Shown here piece after piece: positions 15,110-35,692 of a DNA stretch of 64,000 nucleotides (positions within the stretch are counted from its first letter, which is position 1; every line of letters begins with the position of its first letter). The DNA is taken from positions 1-64,000 of IMG/VR virus record IMGVR_UViG_3300020198_001494, one strand, 5' to 3'. The DNA comes from a virus. Below the pieces are notes generated by a model. That model was given only the letters and a program-made list of their open reading frames with translations, was not told where the DNA came from and searched no databases. The translations under genes and the position numbers were made by a program.

Positions 15110-15130
15110 TTACATTTTTCTCCAAAAAAA

Positions 15131-19175: not shown

Positions 19176-22100
19176 CTAACTCCAGTAGCCTTCTGATCTA
19201 ACGAACCCGCTAAAAAAAGACTCTACTTCTGATCTAGAAACTGCATCTTTATTATCTGATTCGTATACTACTCCACCAAAACTAGCTGTTATAAATGTAG
19301 ACTTTATTTCGTGTGCTTCTTTAATTTTAGGAGTTAAAAACGCTCCTCTACCACCGCCTGGCATTTTTCGCCCTGGCTGCGGTTCTCCTCGACGTTCATA
19401 TGGTGATATTAAAGTCGGTGTTGATTCTTCATTAAGTTTTGGTACAGACTGAGTCTTAGACTCTGTTTCTGTCGGTCTTTGCCATAAATGAGGTTCATCA
19501 ACATCATGTTGTATTCCACGAACCCTAGTAATAAAACCTCTTTTAAATGTATCAGAGCTAATAAATTCTATTACTTTATCGGCTAACTCATCTGCATTCT
19601 TGACACCGTTTATTTTACCGCTATCTATCATGGCTTGTATATCTACCAAAACCTCTTTCTTAAGGAACAAAGACTTAAGGTTATTTATAAATTCTTTATA
19701 TATAAAATCAATTTTTTCTTTTTCTTTTTCTGCTGTTCTTTCCTTTGGGACAAGAGCAGCATTTGTTGCTGAATCAATCCTATCTGCACTGTTTATAGCA
19801 GCATCAAAAAAAGCTTTAAGAGCTATAGGAAATACTTCTGGACTACCAGTAAGTGAATTTTCATTCAGTGATATCAATAATAACCTTTTAGCTAAATTTC
19901 TAGAAAATTGCAAAGCTTTACTTGCGTCTTGAACTCTTGGTATATTAACGCTTAATAGCTCTTTTGATTTTTTATACTTATCTAAATAATTCGTGTCTAC
20001 CAAATCTCCTAAACGCTTTTCTAACTCTGCTATTCTATATAAAACAGCGTTTATCTCTTTGTCTAAATCCCACTTCTCCCCAGGCTGCGGAACCCTACTT
20101 TTTGTAGCAATCACACCAGCCACCATCTTAGCTAAATCTGGAATACTATATTTAGACAAATACGTTCTCTGTTCGTTACCATCATCAGACAAATAACTGC
20201 CTATAATTTTTTCCATATATGATTTAAAATCTTCCAATTTTTCATAACCAAACTGCCCTTTAGCTAATCTATGAGTCATACGTAATAAAGTTTGTGCTTC
20301 CTTAAACTTATGTAAATCACCTTTTGAATATTTAGATTTAGATTTATTAAAATATCTTAGCAACTGATCATCGGTAGCTCCAACTAATTCTGTATCAATA
20401 AGATCACTATTAAATTTTTTCATAACATGTTTATCTACAATTTCTCTTGAATATGCATCCGACGAAAATCTTAAAGAGTTTTCTAAAATTAAAATATCTC
20501 TTAACTTGTCTAACTGCTCTTTAGTTAACTTCTTTTTTCTATCCCAAGAATTAGCTTCTCTGACGTAATTCTCCCAGAGATCTCTTTTCTTCTTTTCATC
20601 ACCCATTTTATCTACTGCTGGTGATCTTCCATGATCCCCTGTTAGAGCTTTAACTGCTTGAAGAGCAAGGTTACGATAAAGTAATCTCTCTAATCTTCTA
20701 GATATATTATCCAAAGGTTTAGTTATTTTAATTATATAAGATTGTACCGAATTAGCTAATTCGGTAAGTGGCGGTTCCACCTCAGCAGTTAAATCTTTCA
20801 TATCAATCAATATTTTATTTGCAGCATCCACACCTTTATTTAAAGGTAATTTTACACCAAAATAAGCATCTAACTTATTTGATAAATCCTCTCTTGAGGT
20901 GACATGATACTTATCACCAAGTTTTGTAGCACCAAAAGCATAGGCTCTAATTAATTCTGCCGCCTGTGCGCCCCAAAGATTATGTACGTGTACCATTCTA
21001 CTTCTAAGTAAGTTTTCGGTACTTCCCATAGAACTGCTAGTACCTGAAACAATATCAGTAGCAGACAAAAGTATTTTTAAAACTTCATTTGGCCCTAAAA
21101 CAGACTTAACTGATTCAAATAATCCTTTTATATCAAGAGGAGTATTTAAATTATTACTTTCAATAGCATTTATTATTACGTCACATTGATTTTTTTGAAT
21201 AATATCTCCAGGACTATCTGTTAATTCATTTTTTCTTTGATAAATAAGATTCTTTAATTGTGATCCACCATCTTCTCTCAATGTTATTAAAAATGCATTG
21301 AATCCAACTTGATCATCTTCAAACAAACGTTCTACTTTTTGAACAAAATCTTGAGCACCTTCCCCACCAAAGATACCCATTAAATATGCTTCATTCAATA
21401 ATTTAGTCTGTGATACTATTTTTTGACCGAAACCTTTAGTGCCGATTATTATATTAGATAAAGCACCAACGAATTTATTTGAACTTATACCAGAGTTTCT
21501 TAATACTTGATCTATTACACCAAATGTACTAGCCACCTGTTCATAATCCCAACAAAAATTTTCAGACATAGTAGCTATTAATTGACCTAGATCTGCCGCA
21601 TCCATTGTCCAATGTCTTTCAAAACCAATAGCTAAATTAGCCATTCTGTTTAAAGCCATGACATTAGCTGGTGCATCTCCTCCTAAAGATTTGGAAAGTC
21701 TTGGTAAAAAAACATCATTTAAGCTCTTCCAAACTGAATCCATTTTTTCCCTTGGTACACCAAAATAGTTATCGAATAAAGTACCACTCTTTGATAAACT
21801 ATCCCCCATAGTACCATAAAACTCCTCAAAATATTTTGTTAGCTCTTCTGGATCCGTATCTATATCTAAATTGATGCCTAAACCAATTGGTCCTCTTGTT
21901 TCTAAAAGACTTTTATTGAAATCCCTAAATTTTGACGCTGCTTGCATGATCATTACTATAATATTAAATGCACCTACACCAAATGATACAAGTCCAGCCA
22001 TTTTATCAAAAACAGTTGCAACTCCGGATAAAGTTTTAGCTATAGCCGTAGATCCTATTTCAACGGCACCATCATAAGTTACTTTAGCTTTCTCTGAAAA

Positions 22101-22889
22101 AGTACTAGTACTTCTTTTAGTAGCATGACTATCTGAAAGCGCCCTACCGACAGCACCGGATGTTATATTAACTCTTGAAAAATGTGCTTTAGCTTGTGCG
22201 CTTTTGCCATGAAGAGCAGCCATTACTCCAGATTTTAAATAACCCATGGACTCACTGGCCGATTCGGCAAAAGCGACTGGACCTTCCATTAAAATATCTT
22301 TTGATAATTTTATTGATTCATAAAAGTCGTTATATTTATCTACAGACTTATCTAAATCTATTTCCATTTGAGTAACTTCTGCCATTATTTGGTGGAATTT
22401 TATAACATGCTCCTCCAATACCTCTGGGGAAGATTTTTTTAACATATCATCTTTATACTTAACTATAGTATTCATTGCTTCTTCCATGAGGTTTTTAATA
22501 TTGTCGTGTTTCAGAGAAATATCATAAAATTTACTAGCTGGTACCCCTACCCTTGCTGCTACCTCAAGAAAATTAGTAACTTTATTATTTATTCTTTTTG
22601 CTATAATTGATATATTTTTAGTCACCTGAGGCATCATCTCAACATTTAATGACTCAAATTTAATTGTCCTGAGATCTTTTCTTATACTTTCAATATCCCT
22701 TTCTTGGTTTCTTAGTTGTTTTTCCAGATCTTTAATAGCTGTTGGGTCAAATATAGATACTTTTTTTGAAATACTATTTAAAACATCAGCATGCCTTTTT
22801 CCATCTTTTGAAATACCTAAAAACTTATCTATCTTAGATCCAACAGAATTAGCTATTTTAAGTATTATGTTAATGTCTTTCTTAGACAT
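19176..22889 (-). CDS. Tape-measure-like protein 4 (1237 aa)
   Basis: Long helical protein; hydrophobic patch followed by shared core KFRDFNKSLLETRG...SGISSNKF; lies between chaperones and baseplate. Confidence 0.6.
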   Translation of the reverse strand: MSKKDINIILKIANSVGSKIDKFLGISKDGKRHADVLNSISKKVSIFDPTAIKDLEKQLRNQERDIESIRKDLRTIKFESLNVEMMPQVTKNISIIAKRINNKVTNFLEVAARVGVPASKFYDISLKHDNIKNLMEEAMNTIVKYKDDMLKKSSPEVLEEHVIKFHQIMAEVTQMEIDLDKSVDKYNDFYESIKLSKDILMEGPVAFAESASESMGYLKSGVMAALHGKSAQAKAHFSRVNITSGAVGRALSDSHATKRSTSTFSEKAKVTYDGAVEIGSTAIAKTLSGVATVFDKMAGLVSFGVGAFNIIVMIMQAASKFRDFNKSLLETRGPIGLGINLDIDTDPEELTKYFEEFYGTMGDSLSKSGTLFDNYFGVPREKMDSVWKSLNDVFLPRLSKSLGGDAPANVMALNRMANLAIGFERHWTMDAADLGQLIATMSENFCWDYEQVASTFGVIDQVLRNSGISSNKFVGALSNIIIGTKGFGQKIVSQTKLLNEAYLMGIFGGEGAQDFVQKVERLFEDDQVGFNAFLITLREDGGSQLKNLIYQRKNELTDSPGDIIQKNQCDVIINAIESNNLNTPLDIKGLFESVKSVLGPNEVLKILLSATDIVSGTSSSMGSTENLLRSRMVHVHNLWGAQAAELIRAYAFGATKLGDKYHVTSREDLSNKLDAYFGVKLPLNKGVDAANKILIDMKDLTAEVEPPLTELANSVQSYIIKITKPLDNISRRLERLLYRNLALQAVKALTGDHGRSPAVDKMGDEKKKRDLWENYVREANSWDRKKKLTKEQLDKLRDILILENSLRFSSDAYSREIVDKHVMKKFNSDLIDTELVGATDDQLLRYFNKSKSKYSKGDLHKFKEAQTLLRMTHRLAKGQFGYEKLEDFKSYMEKIIGSYLSDDGNEQRTYLSKYSIPDLAKMVAGVIATKSRVPQPGEKWDLDKEINAVLYRIAELEKRLGDLVDTNYLDKYKKSKELLSVNIPRVQDASKALQFSRNLAKRLLLISLNENSLTGSPEVFPIALKAFFDAAINSADRIDSATNAALVPKERTAEKEKEKIDFIYKEFINNLKSLFLKKEVLVDIQAMIDSGKINGVKNADELADKVIEFISSDTFKRGFITRVRGIQHDVDEPHLWQRPTETESKTQSVPKLNEESTPTLISPYERRGEPQPGRKMPGGGRGAFLTPKIKEAHEIKSTFITASFGGVVYESDNKDAVSRSEVESFFSGFVRSEGYWS

Positions 22890-22904
22890 GTATTACTTTC
22901 CGTT

Positions 22905-25900
22905 TTAAACGTAATGATCTTTAGATCTGACGTATTTTGAGGACAACCTAGCTAATTCCTCTCTAGTGACGTATCTGCCAGAGTTTTGATCATAAACATA
23001 ACTAAAACCATTTGTTCTAATGTCTAACACTGTTTTTCTATTCTCTGAAGGGTTTATTGGGTTTACTGTTGATCTAGGTATTACTGGCGAAGCTACATTG
23101 GGTCTAGGCACAGGACTAGTAACAATAGGGCCTTTATTTACTTTAAGACCCGATGTATTTGATTGAGGTGGAATTGGATGAGGCGGTACTTTATCATGAC
23201 CGCGTGTTTTTGCTTTAACACCTTTATCCCTACCTGCTGCTACATTTCTAGCATTAATATCTCTAGAAGCTTGCGTAAGAGTACTGAGTATATCACCGAC
23301 ACCCTCTAAAAATACATTATTATGTTTTACACCAACCTTCGCCTTATCCATATCTGATCTAGGAACCATTAGATTTAATTCATAAACAACATCGTGACGT
23401 TCCCAATTACCCGGCTCCCTCATGTTGCCTATAAATTCTGCCATTTTAGCTTCATCTGATATATCTCCCAGATCATTATTTTTTGCATAGGCTAGTAAAA
23501 AGTTCCTAAGCATAACAGCAAAAAGAGGTTTATTATTTCTATATTTTATAGCCAAAACCTCTAGAAGAAGTCTTCTATGATTTGGCATATCATTTAAGTT
23601 TATATCATTATTTCTTACTAGCTCTGATAATCTATTTCTCTCATCTTGAGAGAAATTTGAATTATTAGCTAGCCATTTATTAATGTCCATAAAAACGCTT
23701 CCCAAAGTTATCGAAGCATCAGACACCATCTTTATTCGTTCATTCATATCATAGATATCTTCACCTTCACTATCTTTAAATATACCAGATCCTGGGATAT
23801 TAGCTAAAAATAGTGATCTCATAAACTCTGGTTTACTTAATCTATCCCCATTCCTAATTTTTCCTTTATTTTCTCTGTCAAATTTATCTAATTTTTTTTG
23901 ATAATCTTCAAAAGCTCTATCTATTGATTTCTTTCCCTCCTCTTTAGTTAATCCTAAAAATATAGATGCAGCGTCTGATAAAGTTGCTTCAACATCCTTT
24001 TGAGGAATACCCCAAATATTTGAGGCAGTTTCAGAAAAACCTCCAGCGAATTTTCTAGGATCAGCAAAACGAAATTCTGGTTTAGCTGTTATACGTGCTG
24101 TACCTGGATACTTATTATTTATTTTTTCATACATTTTATCTATAAGCAATAACTTACCAATAGCCTCTTCTTCTGACCAACCTGGCTGTCTTTCACCAGA
24201 TTCAAAAAATTTTTCTTGAGCTTGCATAAACTCTTGTTGAAGTTTAGCAAAATCAAAACGATCTTGTTTTTCTGGATCTTTAACTACATTAACTAAAAAA
24301 CTTTGTATAGTATCAATTATTCTATACATAGACAAATTTATTCCTGAAATCATAGTTTCAAGAAAGTTTTTAAATGCGGTAGCTGGATTATTCACAGATT
24401 CATTAAATTTAGCTGCCTGATCGCGCAAATCTTCTCCAGCCTTCTCAGCCGCTTTTCTTTTAGCGGCTGAGTCAGTGGCATCTTTTTTAGCACCAGCAGC
24501 AGCGTCTTTTGTTTTAGCTAAAGGCGACATATTACCATCTGGATAAGCCATTTTAGCCAAAAATGGTCTTATTACAGCATTAAAACTTCCTTTAAATTTT
24601 AATGCTAATAATCCTACCTCTTCATTATTTTTCCAGGCAGCGTTTTCAAAATCTTCTTTTGTGCGTAGAGGATGTCCTAAAACACCTTCCAAAACCTTTA
24701 GTAATAAAGGCTCTGCTGTGTCTTCGTTCATAAAATACTTCATGGCGGAAGTTTTAACACCTATACCAAAAGGAGTTTTTCCCTGCCCCGATCTAATTAA
24801 AGACAAAGCATTCTCTAGAGCTTTTCTTGTTAGAGTATTTGTTGGTCCCGGATCTAATTTAGCTAATTGTGTTTCAATAATACTTGCAAAATCATTATCA
24901 CTCACAAATGCTGCTGCCATATGTTCAAAATCTTCATCTTGTAATAAATTTTGTAACCCAGATACATATTCTGCTACTTGTTGACCAGACCCAAAAATTT
25001 TACTCTTATACATAGATGATAGGGCTCTAGCTGCTGCACCGGCATTTGTACCAAATCCCCTGTACCCACTAGTAACTTGCCTAAACCCTTCCATAAATCT
25101 TGGACCACTAACCGCAGATTTTTCCATCTCGCCATATAAATTACCGAAAACAACATCCATATCTTCTCTACTTAAGTTATAATCCATACCCCAAGTAGTT
25201 ATTAGTTTAGCTGCCTCATCACTAGACATTCCAAGCATCCTTCCGACTCCAACAGAATAATTTACTAAATCTGTTAAAGCAAAAGCCTCAGCGTTTACTC
25301 CATCTGACTTCTGTGCAAACCTTGGAAGATAAATCCCTTTTAGGGCTTGTTGAACACTATCAAACTCCTCTTGTCCTATGCCATATCTATTTCCTCTTTT
25401 AGAGAATCGATCACTAAGCCAGGTTTTACAATGTCTGTAAAATCCTTGCATCTTACTTTCTATAGAAGCAGCACTAACATCTGCTGATATACTAATACCT
25501 ATACCTGATGCTCCTCTGCCCTCTATTATATTTCTATTAAACTCCTTAATTTTATTTGTACCGTCTATCATAAAAGCTACTACACTTGCCAATCCACCTG
25601 CGAATGCAATAAATGGAGCGGCTGTCATTACTATAGAGGCAAACCCACCAATTGCATTTGCTGCATGAGTAGCAGTTCGCTCAATATCTCTTTTTGCTCC
25701 TCCAAAAAGTCTACCCATCACACCACTAGCGGGTTTTAGCTCTTCTTGGCGTTTTTTACTAGCCCTAGACATGCCTTTAGCTGTAACTTGAATTCTTTCC
25801 ATTTTTTTACGGGTATCAGATAGGTTACCTCTAAAAGCATCCACTATTCCAGATTTCAGATCAGTAAAAGCCTCTCCAGTGCCTTCAGTAAATCCTTTAG

Positions 25901-26504
25901 CCCCCTTTTTCATTATTTCTGTAGCTTTATCAATAACAGCAGCCTCTATAGAAGCTTTCTTTGTCATCCTACTAAATTTTAGAATTAACTGACTTAAGCT
26001 GCTTTCCTGGTTCCTTAGTGTATCTAATAACTCTGATGCTTTAGCTGGATCGTCTTCACTAAGAAACTTATTTCTTGTTTCTGCTGTTTTATTTAAAAAG
26101 TCCTTTATATGCATCTGTAAATCTAACACTGGTTTTATATTACCGGAACCTACATTTACAGCTACTTTTACATAGTCAGCTACTCTTTTATCAACAAACC
26201 TTCTAGCCTCATCTGCCTCTTCCCCCGCTCTTGGAAATAATTCTATTCCACCAATACTTTCTGCTAACTGCTCTGCTTCACTTTTTAACCTTCTATGCTC
26301 TCTTTCTACTTCCTGTAAACTGTCTATAACACCTTTAAGTTCATCAGTATCTATTGGGGATCCCTTACCCAGGGCGTTAGATAACAATTCGTTTCTTCGT
26401 CTATTCTCCGATAAAGCATCTTTTATATTATCTATATAACTTTTAACACTACTAGCAATGTTAACAGCTATATTAGCATTTTTATTATATCTTTTTTTAG
26501 CCAT
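22905..26504 (-). CDS. Tape-measure-like protein 3 (about 1199 aa; likely start ATG 26504, MAKKRY)
   Basis: Helical, Ala/Gly-rich; core KIKEFNRNIIEGRG...SAVSGPRF; N- and C-termini resemble protein 4; ATG overlaps the previous stop (ATGGCTAA). Confidence 0.6.
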   Translation of the reverse strand: MAKKRYNKNANIAVNIASSVKSYIDNIKDALSENRRRNELLSNALGKGSPIDTDELKGVIDSLQEVEREHRRLKSEAEQLAESIGGIELFPRAGEEADEARRFVDKRVADYVKVAVNVGSGNIKPVLDLQMHIKDFLNKTAETRNKFLSEDDPAKASELLDTLRNQESSLSQLILKFSRMTKKASIEAAVIDKATEIMKKGAKGFTEGTGEAFTDLKSGIVDAFRGNLSDTRKKMERIQVTAKGMSRASKKRQEELKPASGVMGRLFGGAKRDIERTATHAANAIGGFASIVMTAAPFIAFAGGLASVVAFMIDGTNKIKEFNRNIIEGRGASGIGISISADVSAASIESKMQGFYRHCKTWLSDRFSKRGNRYGIGQEEFDSVQQALKGIYLPRFAQKSDGVNAEAFALTDLVNYSVGVGRMLGMSSDEAAKLITTWGMDYNLSREDMDVVFGNLYGEMEKSAVSGPRFMEGFRQVTSGYRGFGTNAGAAARALSSMYKSKIFGSGQQVAEYVSGLQNLLQDEDFEHMAAAFVSDNDFASIIETQLAKLDPGPTNTLTRKALENALSLIRSGQGKTPFGIGVKTSAMKYFMNEDTAEPLLLKVLEGVLGHPLRTKEDFENAAWKNNEEVGLLALKFKGSFNAVIRPFLAKMAYPDGNMSPLAKTKDAAAGAKKDATDSAAKRKAAEKAGEDLRDQAAKFNESVNNPATAFKNFLETMISGINLSMYRIIDTIQSFLVNVVKDPEKQDRFDFAKLQQEFMQAQEKFFESGERQPGWSEEEAIGKLLLIDKMYEKINNKYPGTARITAKPEFRFADPRKFAGGFSETASNIWGIPQKDVEATLSDAASIFLGLTKEEGKKSIDRAFEDYQKKLDKFDRENKGKIRNGDRLSKPEFMRSLFLANIPGSGIFKDSEGEDIYDMNERIKMVSDASITLGSVFMDINKWLANNSNFSQDERNRLSELVRNNDINLNDMPNHRRLLLEVLAIKYRNNKPLFAVMLRNFLLAYAKNNDLGDISDEAKMAEFIGNMREPGNWERHDVVYELNLMVPRSDMDKAKVGVKHNNVFLEGVGDILSTLTQASRDINARNVAAGRDKGVKAKTRGHDKVPPHPIPPQSNTSGLKVNKGPIVTSPVPRPNVASPVIPRSTVNPINPSENRKTVLDIRTNGFSYVYDQNSGRYVTREELARLSSKYVRSKDHYV

Positions 26505-29500
26505 TATTTTTAATATACCTACTAACAATACTATCCCATAAACTTAATAAATCTACTTCATCTGATACTTTAATATAATGTTCTTCATATGAGGTTTTTA
26601 CTGATTTGTCAACTGGTTGTATATTATCATTATTTTGCTGATTACCTAAGATAACTATTGCTTTATCTATACTCCTATCCACATTATTAACATTTTTTAC
26701 CTCATAATCTACTTTAACTAACTCAAGAGGAATTGGTGGGGGTAACACGCTAGGTTTTGAAGATATCTCAGTTTTAGACACACTATTAAGAGACTGTTTA
26801 CCTGATGGTGGTGGGGGCCATGGAGCAAAGGCGGGGGATCCTTTTGTGTCTCGGTAACCTGGCCTCCATCTATCATCTTTTTTATTACGGATCTTTACTG
26901 TATTATTAGGTAATTTACTATCTTTAGGTTTTGAGGAAGCAGAATTCCTAACTTGAGATCTAACATTTTTTCCAACTCTATCTCCAACCCTTTTACCAGC
27001 CCTGCGACCTTCTGCTTTTCCCTCTGAAGCTGCTCTAGTTTTAGTAGTTCCTGCTTTATCTTCCGGTTTTTTAGATCCTGAAGATAACTCTGGTAATGCA
27101 CTTTTACGCCCTACATCAAACTCATAAAGGCCATAAGACTCTATTGCTCCTGTAAGTTTTCTCTTATACCCAATAGATGGTTTTCCGTCAATTAACATAC
27201 CCGGAACATCCTCTGCATAAGTACCCTCTAATCCTGATGCCCAACCAACATAGTCTTTACCCATTAATCCACTATATATTTTCTTAAGTAGTACTTTTGT
27301 ATGATCTCTGATAGAATCCTCTAAACTATCATAAACTCTGTAAACAGAACCTTCCATGGTTATTGTGTTACCCGTCCAACCACTTCCCGCCTTTACGCCA
27401 AAATAATTATTACCTTTGGTAGCTAATTCTGATGAACCTAAACCACTCTCTAATGCCCATTGTCCTACGGTGATAGAAGTAGGTATACCTGTTTCTCTCT
27501 CCTCTTTTTGAGCCATTGCTATTACTTTACGCAACATATCTGATTGTTGTTTTGACAAACGTGATGACCATACTTTCTGTTGCTCCGGTTTTGGTGGATT
27601 TATTTTAGAAAAATCTACTCCACTGGTATCTATATTAGAACCAATTTGAGGGGTACCTGAAGAAACAATAGGATCTATAGAACCAGGAGCGAGCCACCCC
27701 CACTCTAATACTCTTCTTAGACCATAAAAAAAACTATCAAATAAAGTAAGCATGTAATAACCTTTTGTTCTTAATAATATACTCCAAAATTTACCTAAAT
27801 TTTCTGTTACACTTGCTAGAACCTCAGCCATCTTTTTGTACTGATGTATATAGAGATTTACCACAGTCTCATGAGTTGCTTCATCTGAATCTCTTTTCTT
27901 TTTTACTCTATCACTAGAATCAGATTTTAATTTTATATCTGACGATACTACACCGTAATGTTTTGACAAAAATATCTTAAGATCTTCATCTGTATAGTCA
28001 AGCTCTTTCTTAGCTATTTCTACTGCCGCTAATATAGGCATGCCACCCCTCTTATTTACACCGCCTAAATTATTATCCATAAATGACTGAATTACCATAG
28101 GTTTTATTGTTTCGCTATATATGGAAGGGGCCGCCCATGCCACAAAATTCATTATCCCATTTAAATCTGGCATAGATCCTTTATGCCCGGCGAGAGCTTT
28201 CTGTAATGACTCATGCAGTCCTAATTGAGATTCTAATGACTTCTTTTCTTTATCGTCAGAAACACCAGTAAGTTTTTCTCTTAGTTTATTTATAGCAACA
28301 GGTAAAGCACCGCTAACGCTTTCCAAAGCAATTTTTGCCTTATCATCACCTAATACCATAAGATCCTTGGTCACACTTTGTATATCAAGAGATTTAGCAT
28401 GTGAAATTGACTGCTCCACCCAAGAAAACATTTGCTCCATCGTAACATTTTCTTGTTTAGATAAATCTAATACTTGTTTTTTAACTAACCTTGAAGAAGA
28501 CCCAAACATACTATATCTACTACTCAAATCAAGTATTCTACTGGTGAATTCAGCAGAATTTATTTCTCCCTCTTCAGCACCAGAAATTAAATCTACGAAT
28601 ACTTTCTCTGCCTCCTTTACTGACATACCTGTTGCAGATATTAAATTACCAAATTTGTCTGTAGCCTCACCAAAACTCTCACCGGAAACTCTTGCTACAG
28701 CAGCAAAAATTTCAAACGCTTCCTCAAAATTAGGTAATGTATCTCCTAGTATTTCTTTAGTACCAACCATACCAGCAAGATTACCTAAACTGACGCCTCC
28801 TTTAGCTAAAGATTTTATCATTTCAGCAAAGTCATCGGGGTCAATCTGCATCTTAGTATTTCCAGAAAAAATTACGTCTAATTTACTAAACATATTATGT
28901 ATTTTTTCTGGAGTGTCATTCTTTATATCTAACATAAAAGATAAACTATGAGCGCCAGATACTTCTAGTAATTTTTTATTAAAATCATACTGTTTTTCTT
29001 TCCACTTTATTATTTGTTCTATAACTTGCGCTAGTACAACTAAAATTTTTGCTGTAGCTGGCAAAGCTCTGAAAACAGCACCAATAGCTCCACCAATTTT
29101 TTTAGACAACCAAGAAAAAAGTTTAGACATACTACTTATATATAAATTACTATGTTTTTCTCCAGACTCAACTAAATTTTTTGCTTTATTAAAAACAGAT
29201 CCTATTATATCTGAAGCACCCTCCCGATCTGCCTGAGCCCTTCTTTCTTTTAGTTTTTTAACAAAATCAGTGCCATATTCTAAAGCACCTGATATAATTC
29301 TAGAAAAACCTTGGGCTTTACTTGATTTGCTATAACTAATTACTTCATCAACCATATTCCTACCTCTACCGATAAATCCAACAGTAGTTTCTGTAATTGA
29401 GTCATCTGCTTCAGCATTAAATCTATGAAATGCTTTTTCTACTATATCAATTTCATCGCTAAATTTCTCTGTTTCAACATAAAATTTATCTGCTTTAGCT

Positions 29501-30036
29501 TGCATATCATTATTTAATGCAGTTAATCTAGTTATTGCCTCCTTTTCCGTAATAGTACCTTTCTTAAAATCATCAACTATAGAATCAGATAATGATCTGG
29601 CATTATTCAAATGTATTTTTGCTGATTTTAATAAAGGAAATACCTTACTAAGTGACTTAGTTCTTACTACCACTAAATTAGTTAATTTACCAGCAACCTC
29701 ACCAATACCTGTTATTGCTTCATCAACTGAATTATAATAACTATCTATAATCGGATTTCCGGTAGATATTCTTTTTGTATAAGATCTCTTAGCTTCTCTA
29801 AAATCTTCTAAAACACCAAATAATTTATCTAGTATTTGATCTGCTGCTTCACCGTCTACACCATAAACTTTTAATTTTTTCTCAAACTCATTTCTGCTAT
29901 TTTTTATATAATCATTTACAGTATCAGTTAATTCACTAATTTCATCTAAAAACTCGTCTACACCTGTAGGTAACGTACCTGATGTTTTTAACTCTACCTC
30001 AAATTCATGTAATTTATCTTGGAGATTAAATTTCAT
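26497..30036 (-). CDS. Tape-measure-like protein 2 with C-terminal GH73 (FlgJ/glucosaminidase-like) domain
   Basis: GIPTSITVGQWALESGLG...NNYFGVKA...YDSLEDSIRDH...YAED at about 27110-27500; helical core KQYDFNKKLLEVSG. Confidence 0.75.
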   Translation of the reverse strand: MKFNLQDKLHEFEVELKTSGTLPTGVDEFLDEISELTDTVNDYIKNSRNEFEKKLKVYGVDGEAADQILDKLFGVLEDFREAKRSYTKRISTGNPIIDSYYNSVDEAITGIGEVAGKLTNLVVVRTKSLSKVFPLLKSAKIHLNNARSLSDSIVDDFKKGTITEKEAITRLTALNNDMQAKADKFYVETEKFSDEIDIVEKAFHRFNAEADDSITETTVGFIGRGRNMVDEVISYSKSSKAQGFSRIISGALEYGTDFVKKLKERRAQADREGASDIIGSVFNKAKNLVESGEKHSNLYISSMSKLFSWLSKKIGGAIGAVFRALPATAKILVVLAQVIEQIIKWKEKQYDFNKKLLEVSGAHSLSFMLDIKNDTPEKIHNMFSKLDVIFSGNTKMQIDPDDFAEMIKSLAKGGVSLGNLAGMVGTKEILGDTLPNFEEAFEIFAAVARVSGESFGEATDKFGNLISATGMSVKEAEKVFVDLISGAEEGEINSAEFTSRILDLSSRYSMFGSSSRLVKKQVLDLSKQENVTMEQMFSWVEQSISHAKSLDIQSVTKDLMVLGDDKAKIALESVSGALPVAINKLREKLTGVSDDKEKKSLESQLGLHESLQKALAGHKGSMPDLNGIMNFVAWAAPSIYSETIKPMVIQSFMDNNLGGVNKRGGMPILAAVEIAKKELDYTDEDLKIFLSKHYGVVSSDIKLKSDSSDRVKKKRDSDEATHETVVNLYIHQYKKMAEVLASVTENLGKFWSILLRTKGYYMLTLFDSFFYGLRRVLEWGWLAPGSIDPIVSSGTPQIGSNIDTSGVDFSKINPPKPEQQKVWSSRLSKQQSDMLRKVIAMAQKEERETGIPTSITVGQWALESGLGSSELATKGNNYFGVKAGSGWTGNTITMEGSVYRVYDSLEDSIRDHTKVLLKKIYSGLMGKDYVGWASGLEGTYAEDVPGMLIDGKPSIGYKRKLTGAIESYGLYEFDVGRKSALPELSSGSKKPEDKAGTTKTRAASEGKAEGRRAGKRVGDRVGKNVRSQVRNSASSKPKDSKLPNNTVKIRNKKDDRWRPGYRDTKGSPAFAPWPPPPSGKQSLNSVSKTEISSKPSVLPPPIPLELVKVDYEVKNVNNVDRSIDKAIVILGNQQNNDNIQPVDKSVKTSYEEHYIKVSDEVDLLSLWDSIVSRYIKNNG

Positions 30037-30050
30037 TTATATTTTTCTAC

Positions 30051-33000
30051 CTACTGACTAATATGACTAGGTTTACTTTTTGGAGCATGTATTACTTTCT
30101 TAGAAGTATCTGGTTGCCACCTTGGAAAATTCCTCTTCCAAAAAGAGGCACCTTCATTCGGCATTTGAAAATGTGGAGCATCATGCATTGTTGTCCAGTC
30201 GCCGCCGTAATTTTTGTGTGCTCCCCATTCTAACTTATGTTTATGTGCTAAATCCACAATCTTTTTCATAGCAGGATTTTCTGTAATACTAAACAACCTA
30301 CCCATCTTCTTTCTATCACTTTCCACAGAGAATGTCCAACCAGGGGGCCTTATATCTATAGCTCTACCATAATTATGACCACTTTCCCAGGCTCCTGCTT
30401 TAGATACACCTGGAGCTTTTATAGCTTTGCTCCTCTCAGGAGATCTCCACGTCTCAAAAATTATGGGCATTACCCCCTCTTTTCTGCAATCTGACAACCA
30501 AGCATCAACTCTAGACTTAAAATCAGGGTGTAAATGATTTAATGATGTATCTCTTGAATTCGTGTTCTCTCTAAACTTAGATAAATCATCTATTTTAGAT
30601 GTCTCTACTCTATACTCCCCATTTTTACTATCATAAACGATATCAGCATCACCAGAAGCATTACCGTAAAGGTGTCGCAATAACGGACCCCTATCATACC
30701 CGGCATCAGACACTACATCTGATATTGAAGAGGCATACATATTTTGATACCTGGCCATGAGAGTGGTCGCCAGAGACTTAACAGCCTCTGATCCTGTTTG
30801 GCCTTCCACATCTAAATTATAAACAACACTAGCTACCTCAGTTACTGGATTATTATTTGCACTCTGCCACTCTTGATAATGTAAATCTAAATTTTCTTCA
30901 CCAGCATAATGTAATTCTGGACCCTCTACTAAAGTATAGCCCACCCTAGGTAACACATTGGCGTAAATACTCTCTTTTCTAACTACTTCTTGAGAGCTAG
31001 ATAATGATGATGTATTAAATTGGCCTAAATCTAAGTTTAATTGATCTTGTCTAAGCCCAGTAGGAACTTTTATTTCACCAGTTTTTTTATCAACATAATC
31101 TTTTAACGTATCTATTATTCTATTTAAATTACCACCTACTTTTGATTGTATTTTTGGATCTTTTATGCCTTGTGTGGTAACTAACTCTTTCCATATTAAA
31201 TCTTTTTTTACTTGTATTGAATTATAAAAATCAAAATTACTATATTTCTTAAATACTTTCTTCAGATTCCCTGGCAATTTTTCATAAATAGTTTTATATA
31301 TTTTAGAATTTATTTTTCCTAAAATTTCTTTTGTAATCTCTTTTCCTACACCGCTAGCTTTAGTAACTGAAGCCAATTTTTCAGGCGTCATACCTTTTTT
31401 TCTACTATTTAAAAATGGATGAAGAAGAAAAGATCCAGGATCTACTAAAATGCTTCCCCCTGCACGAGTCCCTTGTCCTGGTTTATGCAAACGAATACCC
31501 ATGTGGATATGTGTCGGTCCTATTGACTTTCCACCAACTATCCAGGGATCAACCCAAGCGAGTACCTGACCTGCTTCTATCCTACCCCCTGTTTTAAGAT
31601 TAGCTGGAAATTTCGGACCTAAGTGAGTTATATATATCTCAAATTGCCTACCAGCAGAATCTGGATCAGTTACATAAGTAATACTAGCGCCGTAAGGATT
31701 AACTCCACCCTTAGGTTTAAAAGGGGACCAAGAACTTATTTTTATAATTTTACCCCCTCTTATTGCTAAAACTGGAGAACCGGTTGGTGCCCCTATATCC
31801 TGACCAGGATTACCCCAAAAAGACCCAGGACCGTGACCTCCCCTTTTTTTATGATCTTCCGGACCACCAATATTTTTAATATCCCTTACCTCATTAGAAA
31901 ATGGAAAAACATAATCACCTATATGAACTATTGAATCCGGAGTTACTGATACTGGACCAGTAACAACCCCAACATTACTACTACCACCACTAAAACCAAG
32001 TTTAGCTAACTTTTCTAACCAATCTACTATTGCATCAACACCAACAGCTAAAGCACTATCTTTTGCAATCCATCCTACTAATGTATTAACGAAATATTCT
32101 AGCCCTATTTTAAGTACTTCAGTAAAATCTTTGGTTCCAGACAGTATTCTGGCACCCATAAAGTCGTGTATTTCAGAAAATTTTACTGTAAGAGACTCTA
32201 AACCTTTTTGGTCTTTCTTTAAAAGATCTGCTAAGGAATCTGCATTTTTTGAACCATCCACATTATCTTTAGACTCTGAAAATTTCTCTGCTACAATAAG
32301 TTTTATATAAGCAGGATCCTTACCGTACATCTTTACAACATCTCCTAATCTAGCAACAAGTTCAGCGCGGTTATTTGGAATTTTACCAAACTTTTCTTTA
32401 ACTAAATCTAATAGCTGTTTTTTATCTCTTTCTATAAGAGGTGATATAACAAATTTCTGTGCTGTATACAACATACTAGCAATTTCATCCATATTATTAA
32501 CATCAACGTTCCCGAAAATTTTAAGGAAATGCTTAAGATTACTTATCTCAGTTTCCGCCATTATTATCTTTTCTGTATCATGAGATTTTCTATAATGGCC
32601 AATAGAACTTTCTACCTCTTTTATTTTTGCATGAACTGAAGAAACTATACTATCTACTAGTGCTTGATTATCACCATTGGAAGCTAACAAGCTATCTCTT
32701 AGTAACTCTAACGGATCCTTATCTGTTTTTCTTTCTATCAAATCACCCATTAATTTATTGGCTTGTTCCCAGCCAAATACCCCAGTTCTTACTGCTTTTA
32801 ATAACAGGTGCCCTACTTGAGTAGATTTATTATTAAATAGATTTAGTCTATTTGATATATTAGTAACAGCTTTTAAAAAATCTGAAGGATTAACATCTGC
32901 TAATTCTGACATATTGTATATAGTAACTAAATCATCATTTATAGAATCAAAAGACTGACCAAATCCACTTACCCAATTACCCACATGTTGAGCTAATTCT

Positions 33001-34403
33001 TTTCTATCGAAACCAAATAATGCCGCTAAATTTGCTAATTTTGTTAGCGGCTCTTTATACTCTGGAACATCATATTTTTTATTTAATTTAAAGTAACTAG
33101 GATCTAATTTCATTCCACCTTTAGCTAAAGATGATAACATTTCAATATAATTTTCTGCGCTTAAATTTGTCTCTATATTTTCTAAATCTATCAAATAACT
33201 TCTTACTTTATTAAAAGTCTCTCTCCAAAACTTTTTCTTATCCGGTACATTAATATCTATCGGAATATTATAAGCTCCTACTGCTAACAATATTTCTTTA
33301 TTTAATTTATTAGACCACTCCTGCATTGAAATTATCTTCTGAATGGCCCACGCTGCAACTGTTAATAATTTTAAAAATCCTGGCAATTTAGTAAATACTT
33401 CATTTCCCAGTTTTGTAACAAGCAGTCCAGTTTTTATATATATATTTACTACATTATCCCAACCTTTTGTTTCTGGTGCTCCTTTAGAAATTCTAACTTT
33501 TGCCCTACCGTACCATCCACCTAGTTTTCCTCCTTTTAGAGCAGCGGCAACGGCTTTTCGTTGTCCATATATAATCATTTTAGCTAAAACATCTGAACCA
33601 GATTTTACTACATTATATAAATCACCGCTTTTTGCTGATTTTGAAAAAGATCCTACCTGTCCTGTAAATCCCTTAAATGATTTTATTAAGGAAGTGGAAT
33701 CCTCTGATAGTCCTTCGCTACCTCTAGATAAATCTTCTACTACTCTTTTTGCATGCCAAGAAAAATCTGCTGCACTTTTATTACCCTCTCTTAATGCCGC
33801 AACAAATTTTTCTGCTATATCTAACTGTATAGCTATTTCTTTGTACTTATCCCAGCCTGGAACATTATCATAATCTTTTTTATCTGCTTCAATAGAATCC
33901 TCTAGATTTTTAATATTTGCTTCTGCTTGTTTAGTCTCTACCAAAAATTTTGTTAAGTCCGTCATAGTAACTAAATCTGGGTTTAAAAAAGCTGTTTGTA
34001 TCACCTCTTCCATTAAATTTCTAGTGACAGATTTCATTCTGGAAACTTCTTTTGCTGCGGTACTAGATAAAATATCTAATGAACCGAAAGATTCTATAGA
34101 TTCACCAAGTTTTTCATTAATGTCACCTCTTATCTTTATAATATCATTTACTAGATCATTTACCTCATCTTCAGTTAGTCCCTTTTTATCAAATATTTTT
34201 GAAAAGTCACTTGAATCTCTTGCAGCATATTTTTTTGCAGCGTCTAAAAATCTGCTTAATTCTTCTATTTCATCGTTTACTTTTTTATAAAAAGTGCTAC
34301 CACTGACTTTATATTGTGCCTCAAAGCTCTCTTTACCTTGAGATACATTACTTCTTAAGTCACCAAGATGTCCTAAAAATTTACTAAACTCACTTTTAGA
34401 CAT
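30051..34403 (-). CDS. Tape-measure-like protein 1 with M23 peptidase and C-terminal M15 (L-Ala-D-Glu/VanY-like) peptidase domains
   Basis: M23: GQDIGAPTGSPVLA..YITHL..GQVLA..HIH (about 31430-31930); M15: WRSPE..SGHNYGRAID..DAPHFQ (about 30160-30550); helical core WSNKLNKEILLAVG. Confidence 0.75.
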   Translation of the reverse strand: MSKSEFSKFLGHLGDLRSNVSQGKESFEAQYKVSGSTFYKKVNDEIEELSRFLDAAKKYAARDSSDFSKIFDKKGLTEDEVNDLVNDIIKIRGDINEKLGESIESFGSLDILSSTAAKEVSRMKSVTRNLMEEVIQTAFLNPDLVTMTDLTKFLVETKQAEANIKNLEDSIEADKKDYDNVPGWDKYKEIAIQLDIAEKFVAALREGNKSAADFSWHAKRVVEDLSRGSEGLSEDSTSLIKSFKGFTGQVGSFSKSAKSGDLYNVVKSGSDVLAKMIIYGQRKAVAAALKGGKLGGWYGRAKVRISKGAPETKGWDNVVNIYIKTGLLVTKLGNEVFTKLPGFLKLLTVAAWAIQKIISMQEWSNKLNKEILLAVGAYNIPIDINVPDKKKFWRETFNKVRSYLIDLENIETNLSAENYIEMLSSLAKGGMKLDPSYFKLNKKYDVPEYKEPLTKLANLAALFGFDRKELAQHVGNWVSGFGQSFDSINDDLVTIYNMSELADVNPSDFLKAVTNISNRLNLFNNKSTQVGHLLLKAVRTGVFGWEQANKLMGDLIERKTDKDPLELLRDSLLASNGDNQALVDSIVSSVHAKIKEVESSIGHYRKSHDTEKIIMAETEISNLKHFLKIFGNVDVNNMDEIASMLYTAQKFVISPLIERDKKQLLDLVKEKFGKIPNNRAELVARLGDVVKMYGKDPAYIKLIVAEKFSESKDNVDGSKNADSLADLLKKDQKGLESLTVKFSEIHDFMGARILSGTKDFTEVLKIGLEYFVNTLVGWIAKDSALAVGVDAIVDWLEKLAKLGFSGGSSNVGVVTGPVSVTPDSIVHIGDYVFPFSNEVRDIKNIGGPEDHKKRGGHGPGSFWGNPGQDIGAPTGSPVLAIRGGKIIKISSWSPFKPKGGVNPYGASITYVTDPDSAGRQFEIYITHLGPKFPANLKTGGRIEAGQVLAWVDPWIVGGKSIGPTHIHMGIRLHKPGQGTRAGGSILVDPGSFLLHPFLNSRKKGMTPEKLASVTKASGVGKEITKEILGKINSKIYKTIYEKLPGNLKKVFKKYSNFDFYNSIQVKKDLIWKELVTTQGIKDPKIQSKVGGNLNRIIDTLKDYVDKKTGEIKVPTGLRQDQLNLDLGQFNTSSLSSSQEVVRKESIYANVLPRVGYTLVEGPELHYAGEENLDLHYQEWQSANNNPVTEVASVVYNLDVEGQTGSEAVKSLATTLMARYQNMYASSISDVVSDAGYDRGPLLRHLYGNASGDADIVYDSKNGEYRVETSKIDDLSKFRENTNSRDTSLNHLHPDFKSRVDAWLSDCRKEGVMPIIFETWRSPERSKAIKAPGVSKAGAWESGHNYGRAIDIRPPGWTFSVESDRKKMGRLFSITENPAMKKIVDLAHKHKLEWGAHKNYGGDWTTMHDAPHFQMPNEGASFWKRNFPRWQPDTSKKVIHAPKSKPSHISQ

Positions 34404-34408
34404 ATTAA

Positions 34409-35692
34409 CTATGCCTCAAATGAGTTATTTACAGGTCTTCCGCCTCTATTTATATGTCCTGTATAATTGCCTTGAAGATGTGGGGGTAAATCTATTGGTA
34501 GGATAGTAGATTTAGCTGTAGCCCTCATGGGCGTAATATCCTCATACATTTCTGGGGGAATCTCGAATTCTTTGTCTATCTGATCAAAGATCTCCTTACT
34601 TATACCTAAAGATGAACATAATAGATCCTTTTGCTCATCTTCATCCATATCTCTTTCAGAGTAACTTTGGAATGTAAACAGATTTTGATCCGAAATAGAT
34701 TTCCATTCTAACTCGTGTTTTTTAAATAATTTATCCTCTTCTACTTCCTCACCATTAAAGTAATGTCTTCTTCTTTCTAGCCTTTCTATTTTTAGTTTAT
34801 GTTGTTGACGTTTATATTCTCGATATTCCTCTACAGTTTGATTTTTAACTTCATCCATCATCAATTCATGATCATCTTTTCCGCCACTACAAACTAGCTC
34901 AGCCTCTCTTATTATCTTATCTAGCTCTGAGTCTTTATTCCTAACGTATTGAATTATATCTAGATCATCTTCTTCAATTTCTTCACTAACCTTTCCTAAT
35001 CTCTTATTGTAAATGAACCTAGCCCTTCTTTTTACTACTTCTCTATAGTGTAATTCTTCATTTTTCTGCTCCTGTACTTCTCTTTCTATTTGCTGTGAAG
35101 CTTTAGTGTTCAAGAAAAGACCTAACCACCTAATATAGCTCCACTGTACCTCAAATTTATCTTTTGAATCTTCCTCTACATTAAAACGTGACCACTCTCT
35201 TTGGATAACATTAATACCAAGCATTTCTGTTCCAGGTATAGTAGTCAAAGAAGAAGAGTTAATTTGCAATCCTTTATATGCTTTCCAATACCTTCTAGAC
35301 TCCTGTTCATAACAAAAAGACTCTAACATCTCAATAGCATCTATATGTCTTTTTCTAAGAACTAGCAGCTTAACTAAAGCTCTCTCTAACCCCTTTCTGG
35401 GCCATTTTCTTAAAAAATTATATATTACATCTAAAAAATTTTCTCTATTTTCTAATATATTTATTCCATTTATCTGAGATATCGAATATGCTACAAACCA
35501 AGTATCATATACAATATTTCTATCTTTGATACTAATAGGAGTTCTGTCATCTATTCTTTGCCTTTCAAAATCATTAATAGTTTTAAAGGTTATATCAACA
35601 CCGCCAAAAGTAACTTTTGTTGTTATAAATCCTTTAAATAGAAGCTCCTTCAGATCTATATAAATATCTGATTCTTCTGAAGGTTTTTTCAC
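34409..35692 (-). CDS. Tail assembly chaperone-like protein (long)
   Basis: Position between tube and tape measure; N-terminal domain resembles the upstream 162-aa protein; charged helical tail. Confidence 0.45.
   Translation of the reverse strand: MKKPSEESDIYIDLKELLFKGFITTKVTFGGVDITFKTINDFERQRIDDRTPISIKDRNIVYDTWFVAYSISQINGINILENRENFLDVIYNFLRKWPRKGLERALVKLLVLRKRHIDAIEMLESFCYEQESRRYWKAYKGLQINSSSLTTIPGTEMLGINVIQREWSRFNVEEDSKDKFEVQWSYIRWLGLFLNTKASQQIEREVQEQKNEELHYREVVKRRARFIYNKRLGKVSEEIEEDDLDIIQYVRNKDSELDKIIREAELVCSGGKDDHELMMDEVKNQTVEEYREYKRQQHKLKIERLERRRHYFNGEEVEEDKLFKKHELEWKSISDQNLFTFQSYSERDMDEDEQKDLLCSSLGISKEIFDQIDKEFEIPPEMYEDITPMRATAKSTILPIDLPPHLQGNYTGHINRGGRPVNNSFEA

Follow-up and report, generated by a model that had tools for sequence, protein, structure and literature searches.

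Organization of the tail module

The window analysed here (the whole stretch of 64,000 nucleotides, positions 1 to 64,000 of the record) belongs to IMGVR_UViG_3300020198_001494, the 95-kb and ca. 49% complete record of an uncultured large contractile-tailed phage. On its minus strand lie four intact, tandem tape-measure-like genes (g1 to g4, or copies 1 to 4), which occupy the slot between the sheath and tube genes and those for the tube initiator and hub. The genes run from sheath and tube through those for proteins of 162 and 427 aa to g1–g4, and on to the tube-initiator-like proteins and the hub:

37027..39834, minus strand: tail sheath, 935 aa, with 33.8% identity over 89% of the protein to gp326 of Tunturi_5, itself annotated as tail sheath (tblastn)
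36283..37008, minus strand: probable tail tube, by position only, 241 aa, directly after the sheath gene
35714..36202, minus strand: possible assembly chaperone, by position only, 162 aa, upstream of the array
34409..35692, minus strand: conserved gene, 427 aa, directly before copy 1
30051..34403, minus strand: g1 (copy 1), 1450 aa, clade A, tape-measure-like, with M23-like and M15 domains
26497..30036, minus strand: g2 (copy 2), 1179 aa, clade A, tape-measure-like, with a GH73 glucosaminidase
22905..26504, minus strand: g3 (copy 3), ~1199 aa, clade B, without an enzyme domain
19176..22889, minus strand: g4 (copy 4), 1237 aa, clade B, without an enzyme domain
18534..19169, minus strand: tube-initiator-like protein, 211 aa, weak PF23980 match
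17746..18534, minus strand: tube-initiator-like protein, 262 aa, weak PF23980 match
15131..17737, minus strand: tail/baseplate protein, 868 aa, PHROG 1015 "tail protein with lysin activity" (2e-5)
11942..15109, minus strand: baseplate hub-like protein, 1055 aa, PHROG 430 "baseplate hub subunit and tail lysozyme" (6e-4)

The four array genes, which sum to ~5070 aa, are all co-oriented and their junctions vary between a gap of 15 nt and an overlap of 8 nt, with no terminator-like site in any of them. The g3 frame is open to 26528; translation probably begins at the ATG of position 26504, in overlap with the stop codon of g2 (ATGGCTAA).

The flanking genes have counterparts in relatives (L003, L012, L014, and G006). 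The sheath, whose feature and structure neighbours in the ESM Atlas are Phage_sheath clusters, is 53.5% identical to a 972-aa protein of L014. Neither the probable tube protein nor the 162-aa protein has a family match; the former is 46–49% identical to the genes at the same position in L012 and L014 (37% in L003), and the latter 60–64% identical to the 161- and 162-aa genes at its position in L014 and L012. Homologues of the 427-aa protein, with 38% identity in L014 (393 aa) and L012 (394 aa) and 25% in L003 (421 aa), are each encoded directly before the tape-measure-like gene or genes. On the other side of the array, the two tube-initiator-like proteins are paralogs of each other (1e-15), that of 211 aa being 36% identical to a 176-aa protein of G006 and 32% to a 255-aa protein of L003, and that of 262 aa 36% identical to a 244-aa protein of G006. 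G006 also contains relatives of the 868-aa protein (653 aa, 38% identity; 29% to an L003 protein of 1113 aa) and of the hub-like protein (1003 aa, 35% identity).

Shared core, enzyme domains, and hydrophobic helices

The initial annotation had described g1–g4 as four paralogs in the tape-measure slot, forming two sub-pairs, and BLASTP, hhalign, and gene order all agree with this. BLASTP aligned g3 with g4 across 594 aa at 2e-42 (a further HSP, in the C-terminal part, scored 0.013) and g1 with g2 at 1e-18 over 546 aa, whereas the cross pairs between the two sub-pairs were weaker (5e-5, 1e-3, and 2e-4, the fourth not significant). When the g1+g2 profile was compared with the g3+g4 profile, hhalign returned a probability of 95.9% and an E-value of 5.7e-9 over columns 294–555 and 265–519, a region that comprises the hydrophobic segment and the FN(K/R)..L.E..G core already quoted in that annotation. 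Common to the four proteins is a predicted helical core of ~260 aa behind the hydrophobic segment, and its profile has exactly four matches in the 95-kb record. The cores, as placed by the four-copy alignment, and the enzyme domains are:

32604..33551, minus strand: shared core of copy 1, residues 285–600 (own-genome profile match 1.5e-137)
28282..29229, minus strand: shared core of copy 2, residues 270–585, including the hydrophobic helix at 317–343
24798..25745, minus strand: shared core of copy 3 (own-genome profile match)
21177..22124, minus strand: shared core of copy 4 (own-genome profile match)
31488..31808, minus strand: M23-like domain of copy 1, residues 866–972 (PF01551, 19.7 bits, below the 28.7 cut-off)
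30162..30392, minus strand: Peptidase_M15_4 (VanY-like) domain of copy 1, residues 1338–1414 (Pfam PF13539, 32.7 bits, cut-off 25)
27130..27516, minus strand: GH73 (Glucosaminidase) domain of copy 2, residues 841–969 (Pfam PF01832, 3e-23, 83.3 bits)

The AF2 model of the g2 core had a pLDDT of 76 (~90 over model residues 130–300), and that of g3 placed helices over residues 9–1089 with a mean pLDDT of 53. The earlier description of the proteins as helical stands as a prediction.

The payloads do differ between the copies, as had been claimed. The M15 domain of g1 has an H-x6-D motif at residue 1343 and a further His downstream of it, and the GH73 domain of g2 contains the ALESG, FGVK, and YAED motifs; a Pfam search gave no enzyme domain in g3 or g4. 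The M23 assignment in copy 1, proposed together with M15, is the one that stays below its Pfam cut-off; this region matches the PHROG 880 endolysin at 8.5e-6 and has the HxH motif, the HxxxD histidine not being at the canonical place. A hydrophobic patch had been reported ahead of the core in each copy. With a Kyte-Doolittle threshold of 1.5 it is clear in g2 (1.77, residues 317–343), g3 (2.06, 292–321), and g4 (2.07, 297–315), with the highest scores in the two copies that lack an enzyme, but the g1 segment falls below the threshold. A short C-terminal motif is common to positions 2–4 and to single-copy members of the family and is absent from copy 1 which, having neither this motif nor a strong hydrophobic helix, may be held differently.

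Probable tape-measure identity and relatives of the array

Several lines of evidence, each of them weak and all in agreement, point to g1–g4 as putative tape-measure (PF10145-type) proteins. In the whole 95-kb record, matches to PF10145 and PF20155 are confined to the g2 and g3 cores and lie below threshold (for PF10145 in g3, at 24972–25247). PF10145 matches three of 37 family members (best 8.8e-6), and P0020 gives a match at 1.2e-3 that spans 170 of 201 profile positions. Of the named entries in the top 50 BFVD fold neighbours of the core model, nearly all are labelled "tape measure" or "minor tail protein", and in the ESM Atlas every one of the 30 neighbours of g4 that bear a name is a PF10145 cluster. 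NCBIfam and PHROGs gave no significant tape-measure match except for one weak PHROG match in g3, and the family HMM did not match P2 gpT or TP901-1 Tmp.

Since no curated tape-measure model matches g1–g4 above its cut-off and no solved structural relative of their core was found, the four might be thought to lie outside the tail lumen, for instance as internal head or ejection proteins, or as non-virion lysis or assembly factors encoded in the tail module. We regard this as hardly probable at all, given that the slot between tube and tube-initiator genes is kept in every relative examined, that the fold and language-model neighbours are tape measures, and that the two models give no other tape-measure candidate elsewhere in the 95-kb record.

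The family defined by the core comprises 777 representative proteins from uncultured huge phages, mostly of ~1100 aa (median 1127 aa, interquartile range 1066–1193). A single member is annotated, gp257 of Tunturiibacter phage Tunturi_5, as a tape measure; Bacillus phage G gave no match to the core. The locus had implicitly been taken as unique, but IMG/VR UViG_3300020578_000017 carries the same four-gene array (1196, 1191, 1169, and 1200 aa, with 4/4 matching the core profile) in a tail module that is collinear on both sides, the sheath being 53% identical and the flanking genes 35–60% identical. Copy number varies among the other relatives, with at least three copies in L012, pairs of family members on contigs of equal length (P0010 with P0027, P0144 with P0153), and one copy in more distant megaphages. 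We found no published precedent in the literature for a multi-copy tandem tape-measure array.

In the tree, positions 1–2 of both arrays fall within clade A (SH-aLRT 88) and positions 3–4 within clade B (100), giving the same A-A-B-B order, and the single-copy family members group with clade A, not clade B. AU tests rejected neither the reading in which copies 1 and 2, and likewise 3 and 4, separated before the phages diverged nor its alternative. Relatives have the same division of features, position 1 having an enzyme and lacking a strong hydrophobic helix, and positions 3 and 4, there and in the window, having a helix of Kyte-Doolittle 2.06–2.16 and no enzyme. In positions 1 and 2 the hydrolases differ from one phage to another while their place is constant (ca. 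residues 810–1000); the swapped domains are Amidase_2, M23, GH73, VgrG3-like, and an SLT-like motif that was read by eye in P0161 and that Pfam does not detect.

One possible, although rather doubtful, explanation of this division is that the ruler function resides in just one or two of the proteins, most probably those of clade B, which lack enzymes. The remaining copies would be cargo or ejection proteins derived from tape measures, carried in the tube or at its tip, and would deliver interchangeable wall-cutting domains but have no part in setting tail length. In favour of this are the fixed-place swapping of enzymes and the fact that copy 1 has neither a strong hydrophobic helix nor the C-terminal motif of the other copies, and a precedent exists in Sle1 of Streptomyces, a modular tape-measure-related effector inside a contractile nanomachine (PMC13277306). 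However, it is clade A which groups with the single-copy members that must be the rulers of megaphages, and all the copies are within the narrow length range of the family, barring the added C-terminal M15 of g1, a constraint that pure cargo would have no need of.

A proposed mixed tape measure and its closest known systems

The tape-measure gene that sets tail length is normally single per phage, and in solved tails the tape measure consists of one protein species, usually as a trimer, which speaks against a mixed one. For the array described here, we give an even chance to the reading that its genes are ancient tape-measure-family paralogs, maintained in a fixed A-A-B-B array and co-loaded in one tail. 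Judged from sequence, the data suggest one tail holding a mixed tape measure, made up of enzyme carriers and membrane/ruler subunits. The age of the four-gene array and its co-retention at 35–60% flanking identity argue that each copy is required, rather than being redundant or an alternative to the others. If only one were used per virion, generating subtypes for different cell walls or hosts, the different hydrolase sets would make sense, and single-copy relatives show that one family protein can suffice; we nevertheless consider this very unlikely, as two copies carry no enzyme, the junctions are tight or overlapping and show no promoter or terminator pattern and neither a switch nor an invertible element, and the A-A-B-B order, kept across deep divergence, fits obligate partners better.

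In a mixed tape measure, g1–g4 would be translated from a single late mRNA and packed jointly in the lumen of one tail tube, where the short C-terminal motifs could provide the anchor at the hub and tube-initiator complex, and a common ruler constraint would explain the similar length of the copies. Upon sheath contraction the four proteins would exit first, the GH73 of copy 2 cutting glycan strands and the M15 and M23-like domains of copy 1 cutting peptide stems or cross-links, while the hydrophobic helices of copies 3, 4, and 2 might enter the cytoplasmic membrane and line a DNA conduit. Such a membrane conduit has been proposed for single tape measures, e.g., T5 pb2 and TP901-1 Tmp.

Another arrangement would be end to end in the tube, the four proteins jointly measuring a tail ~4 times the one-copy length. 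Their total length could be so interpreted, as very long tape measures do occur in siphophages (5002 aa for P23-45 Tmp; bioRxiv 10.1101/2022.12.01.518664). Against this, positions 2–4 each keep the C-terminal motif of single-copy type and the same domain order, which fits parallel anchoring, and one-copy and four-copy relatives have similar neighbouring tail genes; we hold it to be more improbable still than alternative tape measures. We know of no contractile tail of ~700 nm.

Among known systems, the Staphylococcus jumbo phage vB_SauM-UFV_DC4 has an adjacent "tail lysozyme" (1962 aa) and M23 "tail tape measure protein" (1990 aa), in this myophage likewise encoded by very long neighbouring tail genes that match in length and include muralytic domains, although they are two instead of four, are not called paralogs in that paper, and are likened here by description (PMC10638138). 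Sle1-type actinobacterial effectors share with the array a tape-measure-like scaffold and an exchangeable domain within a contractile tail-like particle, but belong to a bacterial nanomachine with cargo other than wall hydrolases, so the likeness is by analogy only (PMC13277306). Tunturi_5 gp257 (PP885688.1, 1106 aa), annotated by its depositors as "tail length tape measure protein", is of similar length and belongs to the same core family (4.9e-14 with the deep family HMM, 3.8e-5 with the four-sequence profile). It sits in a similar slot, between annotated chaperone and lytic tail/baseplate genes, and has no wall-hydrolase family in PHROGs; being the only core-profile match in Tunturi_5, it represents one copy in a 309-kb isolated phage versus four in the array. 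Finally, T5 pb2, mycobacteriophage TM4 Tmp, and TP901-1 Tmp are long helical proteins from the same slot that combine hydrophobic, membrane-active segments with embedded or terminal peptidoglycan hydrolase domains (PMC5099701, PMC1796659), with the same roles that would be expected of the array (ruler, wall cutting, and DNA conduit). These phages have one such gene each, whereas the array has four diverged genes among which the functions are apparently split.

Genes of the array and their place in the tail module

The source record is linear, 95,201 bp long and about 49% complete as estimated by CheckV, and the window covers its first 64 kb, with a G+C content of about 32% and almost all of its genes on the minus strand. 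The four tape-measure-like genes (g1–g4) are arranged in tandem, as follows:

30051-34403, minus strand: g1, ORF of 1450 aa
26497-30036, minus strand: g2, ORF of 1179 aa
22905-26528, minus strand: g3, ORF with a listed TTG start
19176-22889, minus strand: g4, ORF of 1237 aa

The TTG start listed for g3 is probably wrong, the true start being the ATG at 26504, which yields a protein of 1199 aa and overlaps the stop of g2 (ATGGCTAA). The remaining array junctions are gaps of 5, 14, 15, and 6 nt, and the terminator scan detected no terminator-like sites within the junctions of the array; sigma-70 promoters and terminators were overall no more numerous than in shuffled sequence. Given these tight or overlapping junctions free of terminators, g1–g4 look co-transcribed and, in part, translationally coupled. 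Alternative tape measures, another reading offered for the four copies, seem to us the less likely arrangement.

The gene order around the array places it where a tape measure is canonically found in a contractile tail module. The 935-aa upstream gene encodes the tail sheath (33.8% identity with the sheath annotated in the Tunturiibacter phage Tunturi_5, and sheath clusters as its ESM Atlas neighbours), followed by a probable tube protein of 241 aa, two conserved genes (162 aa and 427 aa), and then g1–g4. After the array come two tube-initiator-like paralogs (211 and 262 aa), proteins of 868 aa (weak PHROG match to "tail protein with lysin activity") and 1055 aa (weak PHROG match to "baseplate hub"), and an ORF of 3380 aa. 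This slot between the tube/chaperone and the tube-initiator/hub genes is likewise filled in the single-copy megaphage L003, in L011, in the JGI contig L012, in the IMG/VR contig UViG_3300020578_000017 (L014/G006), and in Tunturi_5. A role of the four copies outside the tail is accordingly a less likely reading than one within it.

The two tube-initiator-like paralogs (17746-19169, minus strand; BLASTP 1e-15, weak PF23980) are both kept in UViG_3300020578_000017. Counterparts of both also occur in single-copy L003, one as a protein of 255 aa and the other as the C-terminal part of a 625-aa protein, so the duplication of this pair does not follow the number of tape-measure genes. The giant 3380-aa ORF (1550-11692, minus strand) immediately follows the baseplate hub-like genes; at the same place in UViG_3300020578_000017, a counterpart at least 1792 aa long shows 22% identity in a partial alignment across about 530 aa. 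Elsewhere, an 802-aa ORF (61504-63912, minus strand) contains an intein (Intein_splicing 4e-24, PT-HINT, and a LAGLIDADG_3 homing endonuclease domain), and the virion module includes a 418-aa right-handed beta-helix protein (52372-53628, minus strand; PF13229, 1e-17) and a 554-aa protein (40777-42441, minus strand; DUF2460 match, 1e-10), possible fibre/depolymerase and tail components.

Paralogy and family identity of the array proteins

The initial annotation had described g1–g4 as homologous paralogs forming two sub-pairs, with a shared core that follows a hydrophobic patch, and the comparisons bear this out: BLASTP is significant within pairs, hhalign between them, and g3/g4 and g1/g2 align far better than the cross pairs. 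Between g3 and g4 the match reaches 2e-42 across about 594 N-terminal residues, with a second, weak C-terminal alignment (0.013), and between g1 and g2 it reaches 1e-18 across about 546 residues; across the pairs, matches are weak (5e-5, 1e-3, 2e-4, and one not significant). When the g1+g2 profile was set against the g3+g4 profile, hhalign gave a probability of 95.9% (E 5.7e-9) over columns 294-555 / 265-519, a stretch which coincides with the proposed core, namely the hydrophobic segment plus the motif FN(K/R)..L.E..G, whose N and G are invariant across the four-way alignment. A profile built from the alignment of this core has exactly four matches in the 95-kb record. Identity among the copies is only about 20–23%, and within the array the DNA contains only short, chance-like matches, which rules out a recent duplication or gene conversion; by both observations the duplications are old.

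We defined the family by a significant core-profile match at about residues 200-600 in a protein of about 1000-1300 aa, a definition under which all of g1–g4 fall. At E <= 1e-3, an HMMER search with the four-sequence core profile retrieved 777 representative proteins, of which 246 also passed E <= 1e-10; their lengths were nearly all 1000-1250 aa, and the core fell at about residues 200-550; among the top 146 matches the median length was 1127 aa (interquartile range 1066-1193), and 82% were within 1000-1300 aa. The members looked up were all unnamed metagenomic proteins, some of them from contigs of 288-464 kb. Other searches found little: neither g3 nor the sheath-tube DNA matched GenBank phages (tblastn, blastn), a word-indexed protein search with g4 returned only itself, and viral contig scans with g3 and the core-family proteins P0020 and P0153 gave no match. 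Another member, P0007, matched a single GenBank phage, an unannotated 485-kb uncultured one. With 37 family members aligned, the divergence was too great for the alignment to serve as the seed of a locus scan.

The known tape-measure models recognize these proteins only below threshold. PF10145 (PhageMin_Tail; TIGR01760) has a cut-off of 33.2 bits and reaches 14.6-18.2 in g2 and 14.3 in g3, with no match in g1 or g4, and PF20155 (TMP_3) scores 16.6-16.8 bits in g2 (cut-off 41); these sub-threshold matches occur nowhere in the 95-kb record except in the g2 and g3 cores. Among the 37 family members, three match PF10145 (best 8.8e-6) and none is listed with an NCBIfam tape-measure model, and a PHROGs scan of family members listed no tape-measure family. 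Neither P2 gpT nor TP901-1 Tmp was significantly similar to the family (family HMM, hhalign), and Bacillus phage G had no match to the core. In BFVD, the core model had no match at E <= 1e-3 (best 1.9e-3; Foldseek probability up to 1.0), the named entries among the top 50, all short of that E-value, being nearly all tape measure or minor tail proteins. The ESM Atlas neighbours of g4 point in the same direction, with 30 of 30 named ones being PF10145 clusters at a score of 0.95, with only 121-124 features shared. In the isolated jumbo phage Tunturi_5, the sole core match (deep family HMM, 4.9e-14) is gp257, a tail length tape measure protein by annotation only, located between the annotated chaperone and lytic tail proteins. 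On the basis of these fold and feature neighbours, gp257, and the sub-threshold Pfam matches, we treat g1–g4 as tape-measure-type proteins, outside formal PF10145 membership.

The models agree with the long, mostly alpha-helical build of tape measures. The low-confidence AF2 model of g3 (mean pLDDT 53) is nearly all helix over residues 9-1089, then a Pro/Gly-rich disordered stretch and a short C-terminal hairpin plus helix, and the g2 core, modeled with 75 family sequences, is an all-helical domain of helical-hairpin repeats (pLDDT 76; about 90 across model residues 130-300). A sequence profile search of the PDB gave no meaningful match. Structural comparison with PDB entries, by Foldseek and VIA-align, brought up nothing but designed helical repeats, TAL effectors, and helices of a generic kind (TMq <= 0.28, Z <= 7.4); among solved structures, no relative of the core can be named. 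Hydrophobic segments, the other trait of tape measures, are found just N-terminal of the core, where the Kyte-Doolittle helix is strong in g3 (2.06) and g4 (2.07) and moderate in g2 (1.77); it is not clear in g1, where the same scan detected no hydrophobic helix scoring >1.5.

Arrays in related phages and partition of functions

The chief new result is that the array is not unique to the window. In UViG_3300020578_000017 (116,449 bp, 65% complete), the sheath shares 53.5% identity with that of the window and is followed by a tube protein (49%), genes of 161 aa (60%) and 393 aa (38%), and then four array proteins of 1196, 1191, 1169, and 1200 aa (core-profile E 4.1e-21, 1.6e-9, 7.4e-27, and 7.9e-5, in order). 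Downstream, this contig keeps homologs of the 211-, 262-, 868-, and 1055-aa genes at 35-38% identity. The 12.9-kb contig L012 carries two full copies, a small insert, and the beginning of a third copy; the insert is a 196-aa ORF (10715-11305) between the second and third tape-measure-like genes, absent from the window and from UViG_3300020578_000017. Core-family proteins P0010 and P0027 are suggested, from the equal lengths of their contigs, to share one contig, and likewise P0144 and P0153. In five records from more distant megaphage relatives, some of them fragments (101,637-406,734 bp), a single copy is present, its flanks carrying homologs of the 427-aa, tube-initiator, and hub genes.

In the core trees, positions 1 and 2 of both arrays form clade A (SH-aLRT 88; FastTree 99) and positions 3 and 4 form clade B (100), with the single-copy proteins grouping with clade A. 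As the clades match the positions in both arrays, the order A-A-B-B is conserved, even with the array proteins themselves only 20-25% identical between the phages, the flanking tail genes of the two being 35-60% identical. In AU tests, positional orthology of position 2 was not rejected (p 0.32), nor was a duplication of g1/g2 specific to the lineage (p 0.10), so the splits of 1/2 and 3/4 may have occurred before or after the divergence of the phages.

Muralytic domains in tape measures are well known. The differing hydrolase payloads noticed originally were recovered here: residues 841-969 of g2 are a predicted GH73 glucosaminidase (PF01832, 3e-23; 83.3 bits vs. cut-off 30.2) with the ALESG, FGVK, and YAED motifs all kept, and g1 has a VanY-type Peptidase_M15_4 domain (PF13539) at residues 1338-1414 (32.7 bits vs. 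cut-off 25), with the H-x6-D motif at residue 1343 and a later His as metal site. The M23-like region of g1 (residues 866-972; PF01551 19.7 bits, cut-off 28.7) keeps HxH, with the histidine of HxxxD away from its canonical position; P0010, a g1-like protein from a relative, has canonical M23 motifs. No enzyme domain was found in g3 or g4.

It is evident from the relatives that positions 1 and 2 share an enzyme slot, at about residues 810-1000, in which the type of hydrolase varies by phage: M23-like (plus the extra C-terminal M15) in g1 and GH73 in g2, Amidase_2 in position 1 of both UViG_3300020578_000017 and L012, canonical M23 in P0010, a VgrG3-like C-terminal piece in P0027, and an SLT-like motif, read by eye, in position 2 of L012. 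Position 2 of UViG_3300020578_000017 (13584-17159) has a 45-residue Gly/Ala-rich, strongly hydrophobic stretch at residues 769-813 (Kyte-Doolittle up to 2.07), just N-terminal of the usual hydrolase site, with no enzyme domain detectable in the same protein. In the arrays examined, positions 3 and 4 never have an enzyme and always have the strongest hydrophobic helix (2.06-2.16), which position 1 lacks. Position 1 is also without the short amphipathic motif that positions 2–4 and the single-copy members have at the C-terminus, where it closes with an aromatic and a basic residue. Overall, g1–g4 are old paralogs of one tape-measure-type family, retained together in fixed order, matched in length, and with visibly partitioned functions. 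That they are arranged serially, end to end, is one of the less likely readings of these data.

A proposed composite tape measure and known systems

We tentatively propose, at clearly less than even confidence, that four different chains, two carrying enzymes and two acting as membrane-inserting rulers, make up an obligate hetero-oligomer that serves as the tape measure in the tail of this lineage. In the mechanism that we infer from sequence, all four proteins would be loaded together into a single tube lumen, fixed by their C-termini to the complex of hub and tube initiator, and expelled by sheath contraction; copies 1 and 2 would then cleave the wall in both its glycan and its peptide components, and copies 3 and 4, plus copy 2, would enter the membrane and line the DNA path. 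Piuri and Hatfull reportedly proposed a comparable role for a single tape measure. Another report (PMC5099701) likewise proposes the membrane and DNA-path role for single tape measures. The tube lumen of phiKZ has been reported as about 68 A (PMC13250141), and we speculate that a similarly wide tube could give space for extra chains in the window phage.

The main rival explanation is that only some copies measure length, the others being tape-measure-derived cargo comparable to Sle1. A possible precedent is the Streptomyces contractile particle (PMC13277306), whose Sle1-type CIS effectors are characterized by a CIS effector core-domain partner, Sle2, and by packaging as cargo; the likeness to g1–g4 is an analogy. 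Should the four-chain tape measure be correct, it would be the first made from more than one protein species, and jumbo-type tubes could hold a composite injection kit.

With four diverged copies, of which two have enzymes and the other two the strongest membrane helices, the idea of a mixed tape measure per lumen would become testable, and a conserved four-copy array would make equally testable how stoichiometry and length matching are enforced and how the proteins share out wall cutting and channel formation. Virion-borne lysins, moreover, are naturally catalogued by the slot for exchangeable hydrolases (about residues 810-1000), and the core profile is an annotation handle for a tape-measure family of 777 representatives unnamed in Pfam, PHROGs, and NCBIfam. 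On the other side, all of this is computational inference on uncultured phages.

To our knowledge, the tape measure is regarded as a single-gene ruler in every structurally studied tailed phage and tailocin. We found no precedent for multiple, paralogous, or duplicated tape measures in the literature searched, where the candidate papers proved to concern one-of-two alternative alleles, frameshift pairs of chaperones, or a frameshift in a draft. The closest hint in print comes from a Staphylococcus jumbo phage, in which two neighbouring tail genes are each about 1960-1990 aa long (PMC10638138). The window stands out by its conserved A-A-B-B order and by how clearly enzymes and membrane helices are divided among the copies.
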